A stretch of 55,829 bases of DNA, taken from NCBI GenBank assembly GCA_045561495.1, contig JBJKXR010000007.1, positions 1 to 55,829 on the forward strand. Reading direction: 5' to 3'. A program made the position numbers and the translations under genes. Below, piece by piece: positions 6,006 through 46,617 of this stretch. The notes beneath the pieces are model-generated. The model saw only the letters and a program-made list of their open reading frames with translations, searched no databases and had not been told where the DNA came from. The DNA is from Flavobacteriales bacterium. GTDB taxonomy: Bacteria; Bacteroidota; Bacteroidia; Flavobacteriales_C; GCA-002722245. Position 1 is the stretch's first letter, and each line of letters starts with the position of its first letter.

Positions 6006-6722
6006 TTATGCCTTTCCACAACATTGCTTATACTTCTTACCACTTCCACAAGGACAAGGATCATTTCTTCCAACTGTTTTTTGTGCTATAACCGGTTTTT
6101 TTGAATCCTCAGCAACCGATCCATTTACATCACCCCTTGATGCAATCACTTTTGGAATTGGGGCTGCTTTTGGTGCCGAAGCAAGAGCTGCCGATTTTTG
6201 TTGATTTGGATCTTGTTGTAAAATCCCCGCCTTCATAAGAAAAGAGGCCACTTCTGTATTGATTTTATCCATCATAACCAAGAAAACATCATAAGACTCC
6301 CTTTTGTATATAAGTAGAGGGTCCTTTTGTTCAACAGATGCGTTCTGAACGTTTGTTCTTAAATCATCCATCTCTCTTAAATGCTCTTTCCATTCTGCAT
6401 CAATAATAGCTAAGGTGATTCCTCTTTCAAATTGCTTAACAACTTCTTGACCTTTTGACTCATAGGCCTTTTCAAGGTTTACGGATATATTTAAAATCTT
6501 TTTACCATTGGTGAAAGGAATATTAATGGAAGAGTATTCACCACCTTGATTTTGATACACATCTTGTATAAAAGGTAATGTTGTAAGTGCTAAACCGTCT
6601 TTTTTTGCCTTGTAGGATTCAGATACTTTTTTTGCAACAGCTTCAAATATTATTTTATCAGAGGAGCTTTCAAATTCTTCACTTGAAAATGGACTTTCTA
6701 TCCCCAACTGTGTGATTAAATC
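6006..6722 (-). CDS. secA: SecA, C-terminal part (after apparent 1-nt frameshift)
   Basis: [29 protein letters not shown] motif [19 protein letters not shown]. The frame is open back to 6722 ([12 protein letters not shown]). Confidence 0.9.
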
Positions 6723-9286
6723 TTAAACGCTTCAAAATCTTTTCTATGCGAATATTTCAGAACTAGAGCTTCTATTGCATCCATAAACATATTGGATACA
6801 TCTACAGATAAACGATCACCGTAAAGCGCATTTCTTCTCTTTGTATAAATAACTTCTCTTTGAGCATTTAAAATGTCATCATACTCTAACAAACGCTTTC
6901 GCATTCCAAAGTTATTTTCCTCTACTTTCTTTTGTGCCCTTTCTATCGATTTTGAAATCATGGAGTGTTGTATAACTTCCCCTTCTTTTAGGCCCATTCT
7001 ATCCATTAATTTCGAAATACGCTCCGAACCAAATAATCTCATTAGGGGATCTTCAAGCGCTACAAAGAATTGTGAAGAACCAGGATCTCCCTGACGTCCT
7101 GAACGACCCCTCAACTGACGGTCAACTCTACGAGATTCATGACGCTCAGTGGCGATTATTGCTAAACCTCCCTTTTCTTTAACTTCATTAGAAAGTTTAA
7201 TGTCAGTTCCTCTACCTGCCATATTTGTAGCAATAGTAACCATATTAGCCTGGCCTGCCTCACGAACAATTTGAGCCTCCTGCCCATGACGTTTTGCATT
7301 AAGTACATTATGCTTAATGCCACGCATTTTTAATGTTCTACTTAATAATTCAGATATTTCAACTGAAGTAGTACCAACAAGAATTGGACGTCCTTGTTTT
7401 GTAATTTCTCCAATTTCCTCAATTACAGCATTAAATTTTTCTCTTTGTGTTTTGTAAACCTTATCGTTACGATCATCTCTTACAATAGGTCGATTGGTGG
7501 GGATTTCAACGACATCCAACTTATAAATATCCCAAAATTCTGCTGCCTCGGTAATTGCTGTACCGGTCATACCACATAATTTGTGGTACATTCTAAAGTA
7601 ATTTTGCAAGGTAACAGAAGCATACGTTTGGGATGCGGCTTCTATTTTTACACCTTCTTTTGCTTCTACTGCTTGGTGCAAACCATCACTCCATCTTCTT
7701 CCATCCATTATACGCCCGGTAGACTCATCAACAATTTTAACGGCATTATCCATTACAACATAGTCTTTCTCCTTTTCAAAGAGTGTAAATGCTTTTAACA
7801 ATTGCTGCATTGTATGCAAACGTTCTACCTTAATACTATATTCTTGAGTAACTTTTGTTTTAGCCTGGGCTTTTTCTTGGTCGGTTCCACTCATTTGATC
7901 AACTCCAGCAAGCAAACTCCCTAAATCAGGCATTACAAAGAAATCTTTGTCTTCAATAGATTGAGATATCAAATCAACTCCTTTATCTTTTAATTCAATA
8001 GAGTTGGCTTTTTCATCAATCACAAAGAATAACTCATCATCCACAACATGCATGTGTTTTCCTTGCTCTTGCATGTAGTGGTTTTCTGTTTTTTGAAGCA
8101 GTTGTTTGGCACCAGGCTGAGATAAAAACTTAATTAACGCTTTATTTTTTGGTAAACCTCTAAATGCACGTAAAATTTCAATTCCCGCCTCCTTTGAATT
8201 TTCATCTTTAAATAACTTTTTAGCTTCGGCTAACTTTTTAGTTACAAATTGACGTTGAGCTTGAACCAGTTGATTGACAAAAGGTTTTAATTTATCAAAC
8301 TCCATATTGGTTTTCCGTGTCATTTGACCAGAAATAATGAGTGGTGTTCTAGCGTCATCAATTAAAACAGAATCTACCTCATCCACGATCGCATAATGAT
8401 GTTTTCTTTGAACTAAATCATCAACATCACTGGCCATGTTATCTCTCAAATAATCAAATCCAAATTCATTATTTGTACCATAAGTAACATCGCAATTATA
8501 AGCTGCTCTTCTTTCTTCACTATTGGGTTGATACTTATCAATACAATCAATGGAAAGGTTATGAAACTCAAAAAGTGGTCGCATCCACTCACAGTCACGA
8601 GTTGCTAAATAATCATTCACCGTTACTAAATGAACTCCTTTATTGGCTAACGCATTTAAATACACAGGAAGTGTTGCTACTAATGTTTTACCCTCTCCCG
8701 TAGCCATTTCACCTATTTTACCAGAATGCAAAACAATTCCTCCTACTAATTGCACTTGGTAGTGCTCCATATCCCATTTTATCTCATTCCCACCAGCTTC
8801 CCAAGTAGTTGAATATATAGCCTTATCACCTTGAATTTCAAAATTATCTCTCAAATGAGCGATGCTTTTTTCAAATTCAGAAGCAGTAACTTCAATGGTT
8901 TCATTGTCCTTAAACCTTCTTGCCGTTTCTCGAATATTCGCAAATGCTTTTGGTAAAATTTTATTCAGAACTTCTTCTATTTTTTCATCAATTTCTTTAT
9001 TGATCTCATCAATTTGCTTGTAGAGCGCTTCTTTTTCTTTTACAGGAACACCTAGCTTATCCGCGTTTGACTTAATTTTTAGAATCTGATCTTCTTCAGG
9101 CTTTATATATTCTTGAATTTCTAAACGAAATTTATCCGAATTCGCTCTTAACTCATCCGATGAAGAATCCTTTAATTTATCTTGTTCAAGTAAAACTTGA
9201 TTTACAAGTGGTGAAATATCTTTAACGTCCTTATCACTTTTTTTTCCAAAAAGCTTGGTAATTACATTTCCTATTGAACCTATCAT
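6716..9286 (-). CDS. secA: Preprotein translocase ATPase SecA, N-terminal part (premature stop from frameshift)
   Basis: [69 protein letters not shown]. Confidence 0.96.
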
Positions 9287-9392: not shown

Positions 9393-9405
9393 TGACAAAT
9401 TGTTG
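9393..9405. promoter_or_regulatory. Degenerate TGACA-N3-TGTCA box upstream of secA
   Basis: TGACA-AAT-TGTTG; resembles the boxes at 34500-34512 and 39066-39078. Confidence 0.35.
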
Positions 9406-34467: not shown

Positions 34468-34485
34468 ATTAACCTATAGGTTAAT
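34468..34485. promoter_or_regulatory. Perfect 18-bp palindrome in the divergent topA/miaB region
   Basis: ATTAACCTATAGGTTAAT is its own reverse complement. Confidence 0.5.
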
Positions 34486-34498
34486 GATTTTTAACGAT

Positions 34499-34537
34499 AT
34501 GACATATTGTCATTTATTCAATTAAAACGTACCTTTG
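34499..34537 (+). promoter_or_regulatory. miaB operon promoter with overlapping TGACA-N3-TGTCA operator
   Basis: The ATGACA-TAT-TGTCAT palindrome (34499-34513) overlaps TTG (-33, 34507-34509), which lies 20 nt before TACCTTTG (-7, 34530-34537). Confidence 0.6.
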
Positions 34538-34554
34538 TAATTCAATTTTTCAAA

Positions 34555-36009
34555 ATGGGAGAACAGGAGGAAATGTTAGAGGAAAGTCGTCAGGGTGAGG
34601 TTTTAGAACTGAATCCCTTTAACGAAACCCAGACAGGTAAGAAATTGTACATCGAAAGCTATGGGTGTCAAATGAACTTTGCCGATAGTGAAATCGTGGC
34701 TTCCGTTTTAGGAAATGAAGGGTACACTACTACAACAAATATGGAAGAAGCTGATTTAGTTTTTCTAAATACGTGTTCCATCCGCGACAAAGCTGAAGAA
34801 ACCATACGCAAAAGACTTAAAACCATTAAACACGACCCTAAAAAGAAAAAGGATGTTAAGATTGGAGTTTTGGGTTGTATGGCCGAACGATTAAAAGAGA
34901 AATTATTAGAAGAGGAAAAATTAGTTGACTTGGTTGCTGGACCAGACGCTTATCGAAAATTACCTGAATTGGTTGACGATATTGAGGATGGGCAAAAAGC
35001 TGTTAACGTTCTATTATCTCGAGAAGAAACTTATGATGATATTGAGCCTGTAAGAATAAATTCCAATGGGGTTACTGCATTTGTTTCAATTATGAGAGGT
35101 TGTGATAATATGTGTACATTCTGCGTTGTTCCTTTCACAAGAGGGAGAGAGCGATCAAGAAATGCAGAATCTATAGTAAACGAATGTAAAGACCTTCACA
35201 GAAAAGGATATAAAGAAGTTACTTTATTGGGTCAGAATGTTGATTCCTATCGTTGGTCTGAAAATCGAAATTTAAGAGGGAGGAAATTAAGAGAAGCTCC
35301 AAGAGACGAAGTAATTGATTTCGCTAAATTACTCATAATGGTAGCTGAAATCTCACCGAGTTTAAGAGTTCGATTTAGCACTTCTCATCCTAAAGATATT
35401 ATTGATGAAGTAATGTTTGCTATTCGAGATTATAAAAACATATGCGAATACATTCATTTACCTGCTCAAAGTGGTAATACTAGGATATTGAAAAAAATGA
35501 ACCGCACCTACACTCGAGAATGGTACGATGCAAAAATTAACCGGATACGAGAAGTTATTCCAAACTGTGCTATTTCCACTGATATCATAACAGGTTTTTG
35601 CTCTGAGACTGATGAAGAACACCAAGACACTGTTTCATTAATGAAACAAGTTCGTTATGAACTTGCCTACATGTTCTTTTATTCCGAAAGACCAGGGACT
35701 TTAGCACAAAAGAAATTTGAAGATGATGTTTCAGAGGATGTTAAAAAAAGTAGATTAAAGGAAATTATTGATGTTCAAACTAAAATAAACAAAGAGCTAA
35801 ACGAGGAAGAAATAGGTGAAATCTATGAAGTTTTAGCTGAGGGAATTTCCAAACGAGATGAAAATGATTTCAGAGGAAGAAACAGTCAAAACAAAGTGAT
35901 TATATTCCCTAGAGAAAATTTCAAGATAGGGGACTATATAAAAGTGAAAGTTGAAAAATCTACATCGGCCACTTTAATTGGTAAAGCTGTAGGAATAGTA
36001 AACTATTAA
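34555..36009 (+). CDS. miaB: tRNA-2-methylthio-N6-dimethylallyladenosine synthase MiaB
   Basis: YGCQMN, NTCSIR, GCMAER, radical [15 protein letters not shown] domain. Start ATG 34555 lies downstream of the promoter. Confidence 0.97.
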
Positions 36010-36017
36010 GAATTAAT

Positions 36018-37283
36018 ATGAATGCAACGCTTACGGGTATAAAACAACGGTTTGGAATAATTGGCAATTCTAAATTATTAAATGATGCTATTGATGTAGC
36101 TATGCAGGTAGCACCTACTGACCTATCCGTTTTAGTAACAGGCGGAAGTGGAGTTGGTAAAGAAAGTTTTGCTAAAATTATACATTATCAAAGCGCAAGA
36201 AAACACAACGACTTTATTGCTGTAAACTGTGGAGCCATTCCAGACGGTACTATTGATTCAGAATTGTTTGGTCATGAAAAAGGAGCCTTTACTGGTGCAG
36301 TTGATCAAAGAAAAGGCTATTTTGAAGTAGCCAATAATGGAACAATATTCCTTGATGAAGTAGGTGAACTACCTATGAGTACTCAAGCTAGACTGCTTAG
36401 AGTCTTAGAGGCTGGCGAATTCATAAAAGTAGGTTCATCTAAAGTTCAAAAAGTAAACATAAGAGTTGTTGCGGCAACCAACCTAGATATTCCTAAAGCA
36501 ATTAAAAGAGGTAAATTTAGAGAAGATTTATATTACCGTTTAAACACAATTCCCATTAAAGTACCTTCATTACGTGAACGCAAAGAAGATATTTATTTGC
36601 TTTTTAGAAAGTTCTCTATTGATTTGGCTGAAAAGTACAGGATGCCGCCTTTACGATTGGATGAAGAATCTAGAGAAATCTTAGAAAATTACAGATGGCC
36701 TGGAAATATCCGTCAACTAAAAAATATTGCTGAACAAATTTCAGTTATTGAAGAAAACAGACTAGTTACCCGAAACCAACTTTTGAAATACCTTCCAGAA
36801 GCTGGCTCATCAAACCTACCTATAATTATTGGTAAAGGTGGAGAACATGATTATGATTCTTTTCAAAACACCGAATGGAAAAAAGAACGAGAGTTGCTTT
36901 ATAAAGCTCTATTCGATATGAAAAAAGAGCTCGGTGACTTGAAAAGTGTAGTTGCGGAATTGGTTAAAAACAGAGGTGATGTTGGAGATACAGAAAAAGC
37001 CTACCAACAGTTGCACTTAGACTCTGATGTAGCTCCAACGCAAGATTATTCTGCTTATCCTATGGCTGTTAATACTCCTTTCAAAACAAAATCAAACCAA
37101 GATGACTTTGACGAAAGCCATGAAGTGGTTGAGGAAAGTTTATCTTTAGCTGAGAGAGAAAAAGAATTCATAATCAAAGCGCTTGAAAAACATAAAGGAA
37201 GAAGAAAAAATGCAGCTCAAGAATTGGGGATTTCAGAACGGACTTTGTATCGAAAAATAAAAGAATACGATATTCAACAATGA
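36018..37283 (+). CDS. Sigma54-dependent transcriptional activator (AAA+ plus Fis HTH, no N-terminal sensory domain)
   Basis: GGSGVGKE Walker A, intact GAFTGA, FLDE, FREDLYYRL, WPGNIRQL, AAQELGISERTLYRK. Confidence 0.93.
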   Translation: MNATLTGIKQRFGIIGNSKLLNDAIDVAMQVAPTDLSVLVTGGSGVGKESFAKIIHYQSARKHNDFIAVNCGAIPDGTIDSELFGHEKGAFTGAVDQRKGYFEVANNGTIFLDEVGELPMSTQARLLRVLEAGEFIKVGSSKVQKVNIRVVAATNLDIPKAIKRGKFREDLYYRLNTIPIKVPSLRERKEDIYLLFRKFSIDLAEKYRMPPLRLDEESREILENYRWPGNIRQLKNIAEQISVIEENRLVTRNQLLKYLPEAGSSNLPIIIGKGGEHDYDSFQNTEWKKERELLYKALFDMKKELGDLKSVVAELVKNRGDVGDTEKAYQQLHLDSDVAPTQDYSAYPMAVNTPFKTKSNQDDFDESHEVVEESLSLAEREKEFIIKALEKHKGRRKNAAQELGISERTLYRKIKEYDIQQ

Positions 37284-37771
37284 AAAAACTACTGATAATC
37301 GCTTTATCATGCATTGCCCTAGGGTGTAAAGTAAGCTATTCTTTTAGAGGGGGTGAAATACCTGGACAAACCTTTAGCATAGAAAGCTTCACCAATACAG
37401 CTACACTAGTAAACCCTAATTTGGCTATAGTGATGCAAGATGAATTGCAAGAAAGGTTTACCAATGAATCAAATTTAAAATATACCAACGGAGTTGGCGA
37501 GGCGCATTTCAAAGGGGTAATTACTAAATATGCTATAACCCCCCTTCAAGGTACTGGAAATGAAATCGTAGCATTGAACCGATTAACGATTTCTGTTAAA
37601 GTAACCTACACCAACTCCGAAAATGATGCTCAAGATTTTGATAAAACATTCACAAGCTTTGATGATTTCGAATCAACCGAAGATTTTTCCTCAATTGAGG
37701 ATGCATTAATGGAAAGTATTTCAGAAAAATTGGTAGCTTTAGTTTACAATGAGACATTAATGGAATGGTAA
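37280..37771 (+). CDS. lptE: LPS assembly lipoprotein LptE family
   Basis: Lipobox LGC, YSF.G, F.N.A.LV.P, RLTISVKV.Y.N, terminal W; conserved after the activator. Confidence 0.82.
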   Translation: MKKLLIIALSCIALGCKVSYSFRGGEIPGQTFSIESFTNTATLVNPNLAIVMQDELQERFTNESNLKYTNGVGEAHFKGVITKYAITPLQGTGNEIVALNRLTISVKVTYTNSENDAQDFDKTFTSFDDFESTEDFSSIEDALMESISEKLVALVYNETLMEW

Positions 37772-37774
37772 ATT

Positions 37775-38743
37775 ATGAATAAGGAAATTTTCAACCAACT
37801 CATAAAAAACCCTGCAAATGTTCATCCTAAATATAAGGACAATCTGAAAACATTAGTCGATGCTTTTCCATATGCAACGAACATTAGATTGCTTTACCTA
37901 TCCTCACTACTAAATGATGCTGATGTTCTTTTTGAACAAGAGCTCAAAAAAACGGCAGCATATATTTCAGACAGAAGAATTCTTAAACAAATAATTTCAA
38001 AAACTCCTCCGAAAGAGAATTACATTATTCAAGAGCCAATAATGAAAGTGGTTGCCAAAGAAACAGAAAATTCTGTTCCGGATAACGACAAAATTACAAC
38101 TCAAAAGGAACCTGAAACTAAAAACACAATCGAATCTAAGGATGATGAAAACAATACAACAAAAAAACCGAAATCTTTAAATGAATCTTTAGAAAAGGTA
38201 AAGGACAGTGAAAGCTCATTAAAAAAACCGGAAGAAATAAATAAAGAATCAAATACAACTGAAAAAAACAAATCAATTAAGGAGCTTGATGATTTGATTG
38301 TCAGCTCAGCTATTGGCGCATCTATTTCCTTAGATATAGATGTAGTTTCCACTGAAATTAATAAAGAAAAAGTTGAAGAAAACAATACTCCTAAATCATT
38401 TTTAGAATGGATTAAAGCCTCTGAAGCTAAAGAAATTAGACCTGAACTTAATCCTAAACAAAAAGAACGTATTGAATTTAAAGAGAGAGCTGAAGTATTA
38501 ATTAATCAATTCATTCAAAACCAACCAAAAATTAAACCCAAAGCCGAATTTTACTCTGCTGAAAACATGGCTAAAAAAAGCATTGAAGATTCAGAAGAGA
38601 TTGTAACAGAAACATTAGCTAAGGTATATGCTGTACAGGGAAATATAGCTAAGGCAAAAAGTATTTATAATCAGTTAATTTTGAAAAATCCAGAAAAAAA
38701 GAGTTACTTTGCATCCCTCATTAACGGTTTGAGGTCAGAATAG
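37775..38743 (+). CDS. Conserved hypothetical protein with C-terminal TPR-like motif
   Basis: N-terminal FPY motif, low-complexity linker, LI.QFI...PKI, TETLAKVY..QG...KA..IY..L.LKNPEKKSYFA. Confidence 0.8.
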   Translation: MNKEIFNQLIKNPANVHPKYKDNLKTLVDAFPYATNIRLLYLSSLLNDADVLFEQELKKTAAYISDRRILKQIISKTPPKENYIIQEPIMKVVAKETENSVPDNDKITTQKEPETKNTIESKDDENNTTKKPKSLNESLEKVKDSESSLKKPEEINKESNTTEKNKSIKELDDLIVSSAIGASISLDIDVVSTEINKEKVEENNTPKSFLEWIKASEAKEIRPELNPKQKERIEFKERAEVLINQFIQNQPKIKPKAEFYSAENMAKKSIEDSEEIVTETLAKVYAVQGNIAKAKSIYNQLILKNPEKKSYFASLINGLRSE

Positions 38744-38752
38744 ATATTAGAC

Positions 38753-39040
38753 ATGACTTTATTAAGTATATTAATTATAATAATTTCGGTACTACTAGTG
38801 TTAGTAGTAATTATTCAAAATAGTAAGGGTGGTGGTTTAGATGCCAATATAGCTTCTCAAAACCAATCTTTCGGAGCAAAAAAAACTACTGAAATTGTAG
38901 AGAAGGTAACTTGGTATTTAATTGGTGCTTTGGCTATTTTATGTATTGTATCGACTAAATCAGTTTCAACTGGAGAATCAGAATCTGGTCAAGAGAATTC
39001 TACAAACCAAACTACGCAGCAAGATGATACTGGAAAATAA
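38753..39040 (+). CDS. secG: Preprotein translocase subunit SecG
   Basis: Two TM helices, QNSKGGGL, G.KKTT..VEK.TW. Confidence 0.93.
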   Translation: MTLLSILIIIISVLLVLVVIIQNSKGGGLDANIASQNQSFGAKKTTEIVEKVTWYLIGALAILCIVSTKSVSTGESESGQENSTNQTTQQDDTGK

Positions 39041-39065
39041 TGCTCTAATTCATTAAAATAAAAAA

Positions 39066-39090
39066 TGCCAGCCTGTCATCACTGCTGACA
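39066..39090. promoter_or_regulatory. Candidate upstream activator sequence for groESL
   Basis: TGCCA-GCC-TGTCA-TCACTGC-TGACA, centred about 110 bp upstream of the predicted sigma54 start site. Confidence 0.5.
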
Positions 39091-39162
39091 CTATTTATTT
39101 CATCCTATCATAAATCGGTAATATTGACGTATAAAAAGACTATTTTTATACACTTTATTAAA

Positions 39163-39178
39163 TGGCATGCAAAGTGCT
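39163..39178 (+). promoter_or_regulatory. Sigma54 (-24/-12) promoter of groESL
   Basis: TGGCATG-CAAA-GTGCT versus consensus TGGCAYR-N4-TTGCW; GG-N10-GC spacing is exact. Confidence 0.7.
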
Positions 39179-39214
39179 AAACAAAATAAAATTTATAACC
39201 TTAATATTTAGAAA

Positions 39215-39490
39215 ATGTCAGTAAGTGTAAAACCATTAGGAGACAGAGTTTTAATTAAGCCTGCTCTAGCAGAAGAAAAAACTGCTTCGGGAATAATTAT
39301 ACCCGATACGGCAAAAGAAAAACCTCAAAAAGGCGAGATTATAGCTATTGGGGATGGGAAAAAAGATGAACCTTTAAATGTAAAAGTTGGTGATACTGTA
39401 ATTTATGGAAAGTATTCAGGAACAGAGTTAGCTTATGAAGGGGTTGATTATTTAATTATGAGAGAAGCGGATATTTTCGCAATCGTTTAA
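39215..39490 (+). CDS. groES: Co-chaperonin GroES
   Basis: [34 protein letters not shown]. Confidence 0.98.
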
Positions 39491-39502
39491 AAAACAGTTT
39501 AA

Positions 39503-41143
<1,641 letters not shown>

Positions 41144-43860: not shown

Positions 43861-43968
43861 AAAATGAGTTGATTAACCAACAAAGGTACGACTAATTAAC
43901 ATTTAGTTATGGAATAGGAATTGAATGTAATCATGTTATGTATCATGAACATTGTTATTTTGCAAACA

Positions 43969-46617
43969 ATGAAGGCCGTATTTTTTATATCATTTTTGTT
44001 TTTTGCTCTGACTGTTTTTAGTCAGAAGGAATATAAATATGCTGATATAAAAAAAAACTCTGCTAGAATTGAATTTTTAAATCTATCTAATGAAGCGTTT
44101 ATAGAACTTCCTTCAAAAATTGAAACATGCAAAAAACTTAAGAAATTAAAATTAAACAACAACCGTTTAACTTTTTTACCAACTTGGCTTAAAAATCTAG
44201 AGAACTTAGAAGAGCTTGATATTTCAGGAAATAGAACACTAAATATCAATCAAGCGTTTTCTATTATAAGCAAACTTCCTAAGCTTAAAAAGCTAGTTGC
44301 AAATCATTGCAATATGTTTTATTTACCCGTTGCAATAAGAAGAGTAGAAACATTAAAAGAGGTGAGTATCTCTGATAACCACATCAAGTACTTGCCCCCT
44401 ATTTTTGAATATACGTTTTGGGAAAAGTTAGATCTCTCCTACAACTGTATTGACACACTTCCAAGTACTTTAGTATTTATGAATACTTTGAAATCATTGG
44501 ATTTAAGTTACACGCCTGCAATTGAAAATAAATTCACTTACTATACTGTTGAATTTCTAAAAAACCTAGAAACACTTAAACTTTCAGGAGCCAATATGCT
44601 ACCAAAGGAAATTTGTAAACTTGACTTTATAAAAGAACTTATTTTAACCAATGGAACTTTTGAAAAACTTCCAGAAGAATTTCAAAAAATAAATAATTTA
44701 AGAAAGCTAGATGTTAGAGGTTGTGAAAACTTAAAAATTTCCGATTTAGTTGAGTCTCTAGTTGGTAGTTATTCAACACTTCTAGACCTGAAAATTGGTC
44801 ATAAATCCTTAAATACAATACCCTATAATATTTCAAAACTTAAAAAAATTAGAAGTTTAAAAATTAACAACTCTTGCTTAGAAAAATTATCAAGCTCTAT
44901 TGCTCGTTTTAGGGGGAAAGATATTTCGTTTACAAAATGTAGGTTCCCAAGTCCTTCTGATGTTTTTAAAGAAATAGGGAAGAGTAAAAAAATTAAACGA
45001 ATTTATATTAAAAATTGTGTTTTTGGAAGATCCGATTGGAAAATAGGAGCTTCTGAAAAATTTGAGGAAATTCATATCAACAATTGCTATTTAACCTACC
45101 TACCTTTAAATATTGAAGACTTTCCAAAGCTTAAACTTCTTAATTTATTAGGCAATAAAATTGCAAAAAATAAAATCACATGGAAAACCCCAAAAACAAT
45201 TATTGGAGCAGATTATCAGACTTTATCCTACAACCCTCAAGAACTAAACAACTGGAAATATAATCAAAATCAAAAAACAATAAAACGAATGATTTATACT
45301 GAAGTGGGTGATTTGTTTACACTTCCTTCAGGAGCAAAAGTTGAAGTTCCAGCCGAATGTTTTATTGGAACTGGTAACACTACTATTATTGGAAATGTTA
45401 AACTTGAAATCAAAGAGTTTAGAACCCAAGCTGATTATGCATATACCAAATACCCTACTTATTTGCCAAACGGGGAAGTAGCCGATACAAAATATGCTGT
45501 TGAAATTAGAGCCTTTCACAACAGCAAAGAAGTTTATGTGAAATCTGAGAAACCAATTTTAATTTTCCCTCGATTTAAAAAGGAATATGCTTTGGATAAA
45601 TATTTTTATTTAAACTACAAATCTGAATGGCAAACACTGAACCAAACCGCAAATATTTGCACAAACAATTCTGAGTCACAAATCACCCCTAATTGCATGG
45701 ATTATTCAAACATTCCGAAAATAACGCAAGATTTGAAAGTATCAAAGGTATTTGTTAAACTGATGCGAAAAAAAAAGAAGAAAAAACTAAACTTTGAAAT
45801 TACGCCTGAATATGGGTACAGAGAACAATTATTAAATCCTTTTGGAGATAAAATTAAAGGTTATCCAGAACTTAAACATTACAAAGGAATAAAATGGAGG
45901 TATGTTGGCGACAGTTTAGAAAATGATTTAAAAAGACTTTATTTCTTATCCGATGAGGCGAAAATTGAAAAATTGAAAAAATACAGCTCGCTAAAAGCTT
46001 ATGTTTTAGATATTAAAGACATTAGAATTTATCCTAATCCAAATGACGATAACTATTTAATTCAATGTATTCAAGGAAGAGATACATTTTCAATTGAAGC
46101 GCTTCCATTCATTACTGTTTATAAAGCAAAAAAAATTCAAAGATGGCATAAAGTGAAATATAGAAAATATAAGAAAGTATTGGAAAAAAGAAAAGAAAAA
46201 TGGTTGAAATTGGACACCACTTTTATCAATCGTTATGAAAACTTTGAAGCTCACTTAGAAGCCTTTAGAATTTATAATTTAAAGGCTCTATATTCCATTA
46301 ATAAACAAAATAACAGTAAAAAATCTGGACAAACTTTAAAAATCTTTAAACCTGGATTGTATCAAATGGCTATTCCATTACTCATTAACAAAGGAGAATT
46401 GAAAAAACCAATTTATTACATTAACGGAAAACGATTTCATCCTCAAAAAGTACTAGTTAGTAACGTATCCAAAGGCTATAATTTTTGGTCAAATCCAAAA
46501 GAAATTCCAAAAGAAAAAGGCGTTTATAAAATTAGCGCTGTTTTAGATGATGTTTTATATTCAGGTGTATGGGGAATAAATAATAAAGTAACCTTTGAAA
46601 AAGTTAAAGCAAAATGA
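43969..46617 (+). CDS. Large secreted leucine-rich-repeat protein with unknown C-terminal domains
   Basis: Signal peptide from ATG 43969, many LxxLxLxxN/C repeats over about the first 400 aa, then a beta-rich region and a Lys-rich region. Confidence 0.85.
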   Translation: MKAVFFISFLFFALTVFSQKEYKYADIKKNSARIEFLNLSNEAFIELPSKIETCKKLKKLKLNNNRLTFLPTWLKNLENLEELDISGNRTLNINQAFSIISKLPKLKKLVANHCNMFYLPVAIRRVETLKEVSISDNHIKYLPPIFEYTFWEKLDLSYNCIDTLPSTLVFMNTLKSLDLSYTPAIENKFTYYTVEFLKNLETLKLSGANMLPKEICKLDFIKELILTNGTFEKLPEEFQKINNLRKLDVRGCENLKISDLVESLVGSYSTLLDLKIGHKSLNTIPYNISKLKKIRSLKINNSCLEKLSSSIARFRGKDISFTKCRFPSPSDVFKEIGKSKKIKRIYIKNCVFGRSDWKIGASEKFEEIHINNCYLTYLPLNIEDFPKLKLLNLLGNKIAKNKITWKTPKTIIGADYQTLSYNPQELNNWKYNQNQKTIKRMIYTEVGDLFTLPSGAKVEVPAECFIGTGNTTIIGNVKLEIKEFRTQADYAYTKYPTYLPNGEVADTKYAVEIRAFHNSKEVYVKSEKPILIFPRFKKEYALDKYFYLNYKSEWQTLNQTANICTNNSESQITPNCMDYSNIPKITQDLKVSKVFVKLMRKKKKKKLNFEITPEYGYREQLLNPFGDKIKGYPELKHYKGIKWRYVGDSLENDLKRLYFLSDEAKIEKLKKYSSLKAYVLDIKDIRIYPNPNDDNYLIQCIQGRDTFSIEALPFITVYKAKKIQRWHKVKYRKYKKVLEKRKEKWLKLDTTFINRYENFEAHLEAFRIYNLKALYSINKQNNSKKSGQTLKIFKPGLYQMAIPLLINKGELKKPIYYINGKRFHPQKVLVSNVSKGYNFWSNPKEIPKEKGVYKISAVLDDVLYSGVWGINNKVTFEKVKAK

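Follow-up and report, generated by a model that had tools for sequence, protein, structure and literature searches.

A sensor-less sigma-54 activator encoded beside groESL as the likely switch of a chaperone regulon in Bacteroidota

How do Bacteroidota switch on their chaperone genes? RpoH and HrcA are missing from the genomes of this phylum that we searched, and how protein-folding stress is sensed there is not settled in the literature searched. The question takes concrete form in the window analysed here, the whole 55,829-nt stretch of contig JBJKXR010000007.1 from a Flavobacteriales bacterium (GCA_045561495.1; contig C7 of 46 in a 1.37-Mb assembly that is 66.5% complete), where the gene of a sigma-54 enhancer-binding protein (EBP) lies close upstream of groESL. 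Sigma-54 promoters require an EBP and sigma-54 is silent without one, so the activator is the point at which a signal enters. Following the locus through related genomes, we found that the activator gene is conserved beside groESL and that the chaperone promoters carry repeated TGWCA boxes, which makes this protein the likely switch of the chaperone regulon.

The groESL operon is preceded, 52 nt before the groES ATG, by a -24/-12 element (TGGCATGCAAAGTGC) of the form TGGCAC-N5-TTGC, with its GG and GC doublets ten bases apart and a predicted transcript start at about 39189. This is the sole TGGCA-N7-TGC of the window, where 1.2 are expected by chance; since one match per window is chance level, the weight of the element comes from its conservation. 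Within the family it is present in 14 of 15 loci, the window included. Across the phylum, a TGGCAN-N6-[T/A/C]G element lies 25–160 nt before groES in 53 of 57 loci, the four misses being three loci with TGGCAC and a variant -12 part (L015, L048 and L061) and one without any element (L028). The -12 part of the orthologous sites is mostly TGA (TTGA) rather than TGC; TGGCA and the G at -13 keep their spacing across several orders, and the bases in between vary. The first-pass annotation, which was made from the letters of the window, had placed a sigma-54 promoter here, and its conservation indicates that groESL is indeed transcribed from it. The element also has a close counterpart in Flavobacterium psychrophilum, whose transcript starts have been mapped: the groS row in the available part of that paper (PMC9723704, ISME Commun 2021) contains TTGGCATAATTTCTGA, as found across Flavobacteriaceae, with tgtca just upstream. 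A weak hint comes from one metatranscriptome contig in one study, an exact 390-nt contig of run X3 whose first base, 39191, is 2 nt away from the predicted start and which spans groES into groEL. Among the contigs of four runs none spanned 39106–39190, and nothing is proven by that. A CIRCE element at groES was considered and rejected by eye, as the GTGCTAA in the -12 region has no partner half-site.

The same kind of promoter recurs at further chaperone and protease genes. In this genome, for which a crude set of 1155 genes based on open reading frames was used, TGGCAY-N5-TTGA stands 44–71 nt before the start codons of dnaK (C6:3849), htpG (C19:1527) and lon (C19:17670), whose identities were confirmed by Pfam. 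This strict pattern yielded six matches in upstream regions as compared to 0.35 in shuffled sequence. The looser TGG[CT]A[CT]N6[TA]G[ACT] was not enriched upstream (13 sense and 12 antisense matches, 7.3 in shuffles), so that only the strict form and conserved sites carry weight. Eight of the 13 loose matches, accompanied by no box or a single one, were discarded as unsupported (C6_225, C15_100, C16_141, C16_274, C17_181, C21_188, a holB-like gene on C29 and C46_347), and a position matrix built from the groES sites was dropped, being so specific that the window's own site fell below its threshold. In the 18–20 family genomes compared, the element precedes dnaK in 18 of 18, htpG in 20 of 20 and lon in 19 of 20 cases, and the four genes groES, dnaK, htpG and lon together carry it in 71 of 73 upstream regions. 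For grpE, the 66.5%-complete assembly gave no PF01025 match, and clpB was not found in it either, the best TIGR03346 match being below cut-off, ClpC-like and devoid of a -24/-12 element. Judged by these promoters, groESL, dnaK, htpG and lon are under sigma-54 control in this genome. Two more -24/-12-like motifs, both without TGWCA boxes, lie 39 nt upstream of a DjlA-like gene (TerB and DnaJ domains; G000:C18:2915–3718, minus strand) and 46 nt upstream of an outer-membrane beta-barrel gene (G000:C21:4574–5137, minus strand); these either arose by chance or represent a different type of sigma-54 promoter.

A chaperone circuit unlike RpoH or HrcA control had been anticipated from the window, and the relatives agree with it: HrcA (PF01628) was found in none of 31 genomes, and none of the same 31 holds a sigma factor above the RpoH cut-off (TIGR02392). 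As a side observation, the relatives G000–G030 each have one to three sigma-70-family genes of about 290 residues, which score about 150–170 bits on the RpoH model against a cut-off of 323. The sigma-54 proteostasis regulon itself is already known. The first reading of the window had supposed that no experimental description existed; this needs correction, since the available part of PMC9723704 reports mapped starts with a -24/-12 motif, SM4, at groES-groEL, lon, dnaK, grpE-dnaJ, htpG, skp, clpB and others. Likewise, PMC12316311, as far as its text was available, predicts sigma-54 promoters to be enriched at GroEL, GroES, IbpA, GrpE, DnaJ and DnaK in Bacteroidota and Planctomycetota, and its source for sigma-54 at grpE and groES is Sabree et al. 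2009.

What accompanies these promoters is a short box, TGWCA. Upstream of groES, TGCCAGCCTGTCA at 39066–39078 is followed after 7 nt by TGACA at 39086–39090, and the cluster is conserved in relatives. Both groES and dnaK share one layout, box-N3-box-N7-box at about 100–120 nt before the predicted start and then a unit of TGACR and TATAAAAAGAC; the unit upstream of dnaK on contig C6, TGACA with TATAAAAAGAC, resembles the groES unit at 39125–39151. In the whole 1.37 Mb, TGTCA-N7-TGACA occurs twice, in both cases intergenic, at dnaK and groES, and the relaxed N3 dyad occurs seven times, three of them intergenic (miaB, groES and lon). The boxes of htpG and lon are found 16–24 nt upstream of TGGCA. 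Counted over the 130 nt upstream of the four chaperone promoters, this genome has nine TGWCA (4 × 130 nt; 0.6 expected) and the family 145 (14.5 expected); across the phylum, counted at groES alone, there are 116 (11.8 expected). The motif TGACA-N3-TGTCA that had been proposed for a scan of chaperone genes thus survives in the form of TGWCA pairs, about tenfold enriched upstream, at groES, dnaK, htpG and lon. At least one box is present at 52 of 53 groES promoters of the phylum, with 29 boxes at -17 or -18; within the family, neighbouring boxes are most often N3 (15) or N7 (15) apart, and the position most frequently occupied is -17, counted from the T of TGGCA. We also inspected by eye the 30 of 95 F. 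psychrophilum SM4 rows that were available (places 49–78; PMC9723704). Exact TGWCA stands upstream of groS and grpE, one-mismatch boxes upstream of clpB and lon, and exact TGWCA in none of the 23 non-chaperone rows, so that in the rows seen the boxes mark the chaperone subset and not sigma-54 promoters generally. Between the groES boxes and the -24 element lies an AT-rich palindrome, GTATAAAAAGACTATTTTTATAC (39129–39151), and a similar one, TATAAAAAGACCTTTATAC, follows the dnaK boxes (G000:C6); such a palindrome might serve to bend the DNA or act as a second operator.

The protein encoded at 36018–37283 has the make-up of a sigma-54 activator. Sigma54_activat (PF00158) matches residues 14–180 (E 1.7e-67) and HTH_8, a Fis-type helix-turn-helix (HTH), residues 377–417 (E 4.4e-15). 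Walker A (GGSGVGKE), the Walker B region (FLDEVGE) and the GAFTGA loop (within GHEKGAFTGA) are intact, and G89, T92, G93 and A94 of the GAFTGA region are invariant among 48 orthologues. As the AAA+ domain begins at residue 14, the EBP has no N-terminal sensor domain, and the first description of the gene, an EBP with intact GAFTGA loop and Fis HTH that lacks a sensor, is confirmed in each point. It is predicted to activate the sigma-54 holoenzyme in an ATP-dependent manner from specific DNA sites. An AlphaFold model computed from the 48 orthologues (mean pLDDT 81.5; AAA+ and HTH confident, the latter at about 97) gives the domain layout and no mechanism: an AAA+ domain (14–264) and the HTH (377–417) are joined through a long helix (282–317) that is flanked by stretches predicted to be disordered (264–284 and 329–375). 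The core of this helix is conserved phylum-wide, with E290 and R291 invariant and Y295, F299, D300, M301, D304, L308 and K309 each retained in at least 90%. It is a candidate for an element, specific to this subfamily of EBPs, that serves oligomerisation or the binding of a partner. The helix is encoded at 36861–36968 of the window, between the two disordered linkers. The HTH is nearly invariant across Bacteroidota. Membership in the PspF subfamily was rejected (TIGR02974, 265.7 bits against a cut-off of 443.55; NF008622, 226.2 against 529), and none of the 25 matches listed, of 29, to NCBIfam EBP models reached its cut-off.

F. psychrophilum has three EBPs, and the available part of PMC9723704 leaves open which of them serves each co-expression cluster. 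The assembly at hand, 66.5% complete, encodes one EBP. Its 95%-complete congener G006 also has a single one, at the same locus, and keeps promoters and boxes at dnaK, htpG, lon and groES. At least one EBP is present in 150 of 151 genomes of the class, a tally that includes the unpublished genome G106, on which no other claim rests; the one miss, G034, has an orthologue cut by a contig end. Four near-complete genomes of the class possess exactly one EBP, namely G036 (0.5 Mb), G136, G153 and G163. In all four, this sole EBP is a full-length orthologue (53–59% identity) and rpoN is present. Their dnaK genes have bracketed -24/-12 elements together with box-like dyads or single TGWCA boxes in three of three usable loci, and their groES genes in three of four, the groES of G153 having only an unbracketed TTTGGCACG. 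Full-length orthologues of 55–64% identity were found in 80 loci (one genome per species) from Flavobacteriales, Sphingobacteriales, Chitinophagales, Cytophagales, Bacteroidales and other orders. In 57 of these 80 loci the block of EBP, lptE, an uncharacterised gene and secG is followed by groES-groEL, with Chitinophagales loci among the exceptions, and no other regulator gene is linked to the activator locus. We consider this EBP the best candidate because of the elimination, the linkage to groESL and the nearly invariant HTH that parallels the invariant boxes.

The dyad also stands on the promoter of the operon that contains the activator gene. There, a perfect dyad (TGACATATTGTCA) ends 17 nt before a perfect TAccTTTG box and thereby overlaps the -33 region of a sigma-A promoter; the corresponding TAnnTTTG consensus is quoted in the available part of PMC9723704. 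A TGNCA-N3-TGTCA-type dyad upstream of miaB was found in 48 of 56 phylum loci, compared to about 1.3 expected, counting TGNCA-N3-TGNCA with at least one TGWCA arm. This arrangement suggests that autoregulation is plausible in operons like this one, and its sign, as we infer, would probably be repression. The divergent topA-miaB region also holds a perfect 16-bp palindrome, TTAACCTATAGGTTAA (34469–34484), 15 nt upstream of the dyad. Of seven same-genus loci, four keep it unchanged, one has a single mismatch and two have diverged, and family relatives have other palindromes in its place.

Taken together, we propose that the sensor-less EBP encoded 2 kb upstream of groESL most likely acts as activator of a sigma-54 chaperone and protease regulon, its Fis-type HTH recognising TGWCA pentamers paired at N3 or N7. 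In this genus, the groES and dnaK boxes would work from enhancer distance (about -100 to -120), and those of htpG and lon from close in front of the -24 element (about -43). A dyad of this type on the miaB sigma-A promoter would serve autoregulation, probably through repression. With no sensor domain present, the protein would most likely be controlled in trans, for example by chaperone titration or by an anti-activator as for PspF, and helix 282–317 is a candidate for the contact involved. Resting on sequence comparison, the whole chain, from the sigma-54 promoter of groESL through this EBP as its activator to the HTH that reads TGWCA boxes, appears reasonably probable to us, and within it we rate the EBP driving the chaperone promoters higher than the EBP binding TGWCA.

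Several observations weigh against this proposal. Most relatives hold two or more EBPs, so that the assignment there is indirect, and rpoN was not found in the 66.5%-complete assembly, although six of seven congeners and all 24 high-quality relatives have it. The box counts come from related, non-independent genomes and overstate independence, and the motif was in part defined on sites that were later counted, dnaK, htpG and lon being the independent tests. The arrangement of the boxes is heterogeneous (N3, N7, single, both orientations), and classical enhancer sites lie farther from the promoter than the boxes at about -43. Where 1–2 kb separate miaB and the EBP gene (L030, L035, L043 and L060), the dyad stays with miaB. 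Finally, the mapped start of the F. psychrophilum activator itself is of SM5 type, with no box in the 61 nt printed (PMC9723704, available part), and autoregulation is therefore not general.

These observations feed an alternative in which the sigma-54 chaperone promoters are real and the TGWCA boxes bind another protein, such as a dedicated repressor or a nucleoid protein, with the EBP acting from other sites or from solution. For an enhancer, the commonest box position (only 17 nt upstream of TGGCA) would be unusual; the promoter that carries the miaB dyad is of sigma-A type, and the dyad goes with miaB, not with the activator gene; and the F. psychrophilum activator promoter, in the part of PMC9723704 available, lacks a box. 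Yet the groES and dnaK boxes of the genus lie at classical enhancer distance, box-like dyads persist at dnaK in genomes where this EBP is the only one, HTH and boxes are conserved in parallel, and the locus is linked to no other regulator gene. On balance we judge it unlikely that a different protein occupies the boxes. Far less probable still is that the groES cluster is merely the intrinsic terminator of the secG operon, with its likeness to the miaB dyad a coincidence. By eye, many Flavobacteriaceae loci (L059, L046 and L067 among them) do show a clear hairpin and T-run at the element. In the window, however, the hairpin is weak (-7.2 kcal/mol, z -2.25), the T-run is degenerate, and a terminator scan calls none for 39066–39100. 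Moreover, dnaK also has TGTCA-N7-TGACA upstream, between divergent genes and away from any gene end; intergenic copies of the relaxed dyad are confined to miaB, groES and lon; and the stem TGYCA...TGRCA is conserved across families, unlike ordinary terminator stems. A reading in which the TGGCA-N7-TGC of groES arose by chance and a sigma-A promoter transcribes groESL has next to no credibility: the single match per window equals chance expectation and the Flavobacterium element includes TAATTTCTG, loosely like a TAnnTTTG -7 box, but the fixed spacing of TGGCA and the -13 G amid variable bases, the same element at dnaK, htpG and lon, and a mapped groS start assigned to the sigma-54 motif with probability 1 (PMC9723704, available part) stand against it.

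In a broader and doubtful version of our proposal, the orphan, sensor-less EBP would be the master heat-shock activator of the whole phylum Bacteroidota, a counterpart of sigma-32, acting from TGWCA boxes that often stand beside the -24 element by means of its long flexible linker and not by looping, and governed by free DnaK or GroEL through helix 282–317. If true, this would be a type of feedback loop that is not known from sigma-54 systems. Irrespective of this extension, the analysis provides a named candidate, present in 150 of 151 class genomes, the sole EBP of a 0.5-Mb reduced genome, linked to groESL and associated with a defined DNA box. It makes the question of stress sensing directly testable in cultivable species such as Flavobacterium and Bacteroides.

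Sec genes do not appear to belong to the regulon. The first-pass annotation had claimed the dyad at three promoters and had suggested a link to protein export; the dyads of the miaB operon and of groES are conserved and stand, whereas the one upstream of secA is at chance level. The secA site (9393–9405) is one of 15 two-mismatch matches, and the 17 matches in total fall short of the 27.4 expected. The left arm of the secA site lacks conservation, and that of a single TTGTCA does not reach beyond the genus. In the 20 family secA upstream regions, no -24/-12 element was found, and boxes numbered 10 against 6.2 expected. We therefore rejected secA as a regulon member, and secG is merely part of the activator operon. 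Within 6006–9286 (minus strand), the secA reading frame itself measures 856 residues. Of 19 family relatives, 17 have a SecA of 1091–1138 residues, and contig ends cut the gene in the remaining two. A neighbouring reading frame (6006–6707, 233 residues) probably holds the missing C-terminal part; either the gene is split, or the assembly contains an error or a frameshift.

The features of the locus are collected in the table. All genes are on the plus strand in the order miaB, EBP, LptE-like, hypothetical, secG, groES and groEL; the EBP gene begins 8 nt past the miaB stop, and a gap of 174 nt separates secG and groES. The true start of miaB is likely ATG 34555 rather than TTG 34507. The 322-residue hypothetical protein has conserved ends and a lysine/glutamate-rich middle, is encoded between lptE and secG phylum-wide, and has Bacteroidota hypotheticals and tetratricopeptide repeat proteins as atlas neighbours. 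Downstream of the locus, the window encodes an 898-residue leucine-rich repeat protein (LRR_14, LRR_4 and LRR_8; 43921–46617).

Table. Features of the activator-groESL locus, with positions counted from the first letter of the window.
Feature	Position	Strand	Evidence
Perfect dyad TGACA-TAT-TGTCA on the miaB-activator operon promoter, overlapping the -33 region	34500..34512	+	Conserved in genus and family loci
TAccTTTG, Bacteroidota-type sigma-A -7 box of the miaB operon	34530..34537	+	Sequence; conserved in relatives
miaB (tRNA methylthiotransferase)	34555..36009	+	Pfam UPF0004, Radical_SAM and TRAM; NCBIfam TIGR01574, 421.8 bits against cut-off 355.3
Sigma-54 EBP, no N-terminal sensor	36018..37283	+	Pfam Sigma54_activat, AAA_lid_14 and HTH_8
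lptE-like lipoprotein gene, activator operon	37280..37771	+	Pfam LptE, E 2e-10; synteny
Hypothetical protein, 322 residues, conserved and Bacteroidota-only, activator operon	37775..38743	+	No Pfam or NCBIfam family
secG, last gene in the activator operon	38753..39040	+	Pfam SecG, E 4.9e-17
Boxes TGCCA-GCC-TGTCA-N7-TGACA, between about -123 and -99 relative to the predicted start; weak hairpin after secG	39066..39090	+	Sequence and conservation
Fourth, imperfect box TGACG (TGACA in two congeners) joined to the AT-rich palindrome 39129-39151	39125..39151	+	Relatives compared
Sigma-54 promoter of groESL (GG 39164-5, GC 39176-7)	39163..39177	+	Pattern scan and conservation
groES (39215-39490) and groEL (39506-41143), target operon	39215..41143	+	Pfam Cpn10 and Cpn60_TCP1

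How does the proposed activator relate to what has been described? As far as our literature searches reach, its assignment to the regulon and the TGWCA boxes are new, both deduced from comparing genomes: the searches found no published assignment of the activator or its DNA boxes, a text search for 'enhancer', 'TGTCA' and 'upstream activat' in nine supplementary files of PMC9723704 gave no hit, and the main text of PMC3162934 makes no mention of Bacteroidetes, groES, miaB, secG or lptE. The F. psychrophilum SM4 set, in the part of PMC9723704 available, is the closest known system, sharing groES-groEL, dnaK, htpG and lon with this genome and adding grpE-dnaJ, clpB and skp, with a -24/-12 form of TGGCAY-N5-TTG[A/C/T] and a locus that likewise runs from activator-LptE to groES. 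RpoH (sigma-32) and HrcA/CIRCE control the same target genes, groESL, dnaK, htpG and lon, by a different mechanism. A second point of comparison is PspF of Escherichia coli, a sensor-less EBP controlled in trans by PspA. Like PspF, the EBP described here combines AAA+ and HTH domains without an N-terminal regulatory domain, has putative sites near its own gene and is associated with a stress regulon. It differs in its extra linker of about 110 residues with the conserved helix, in the lack of a pspA-like neighbour and in its cytosolic chaperone targets. NtrC at glnAp2/glnAp1 uses enhancer sites about 100–140 bp upstream, and similar sites repress a sigma-70 promoter. Our system resembles it in having dyads far upstream of a sigma-54 promoter as well as sites of the same kind that overlap a sigma-70-type promoter, which in NtrC give negative autoregulation, and TGTCA-N7-TGACA, a 17-bp dyad, matches NtrC sites in its geometry. 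Unlike NtrC, however, this EBP has no receiver domain, and its putative boxes are found in N3 pairs, too, and singly beside the -24 element.

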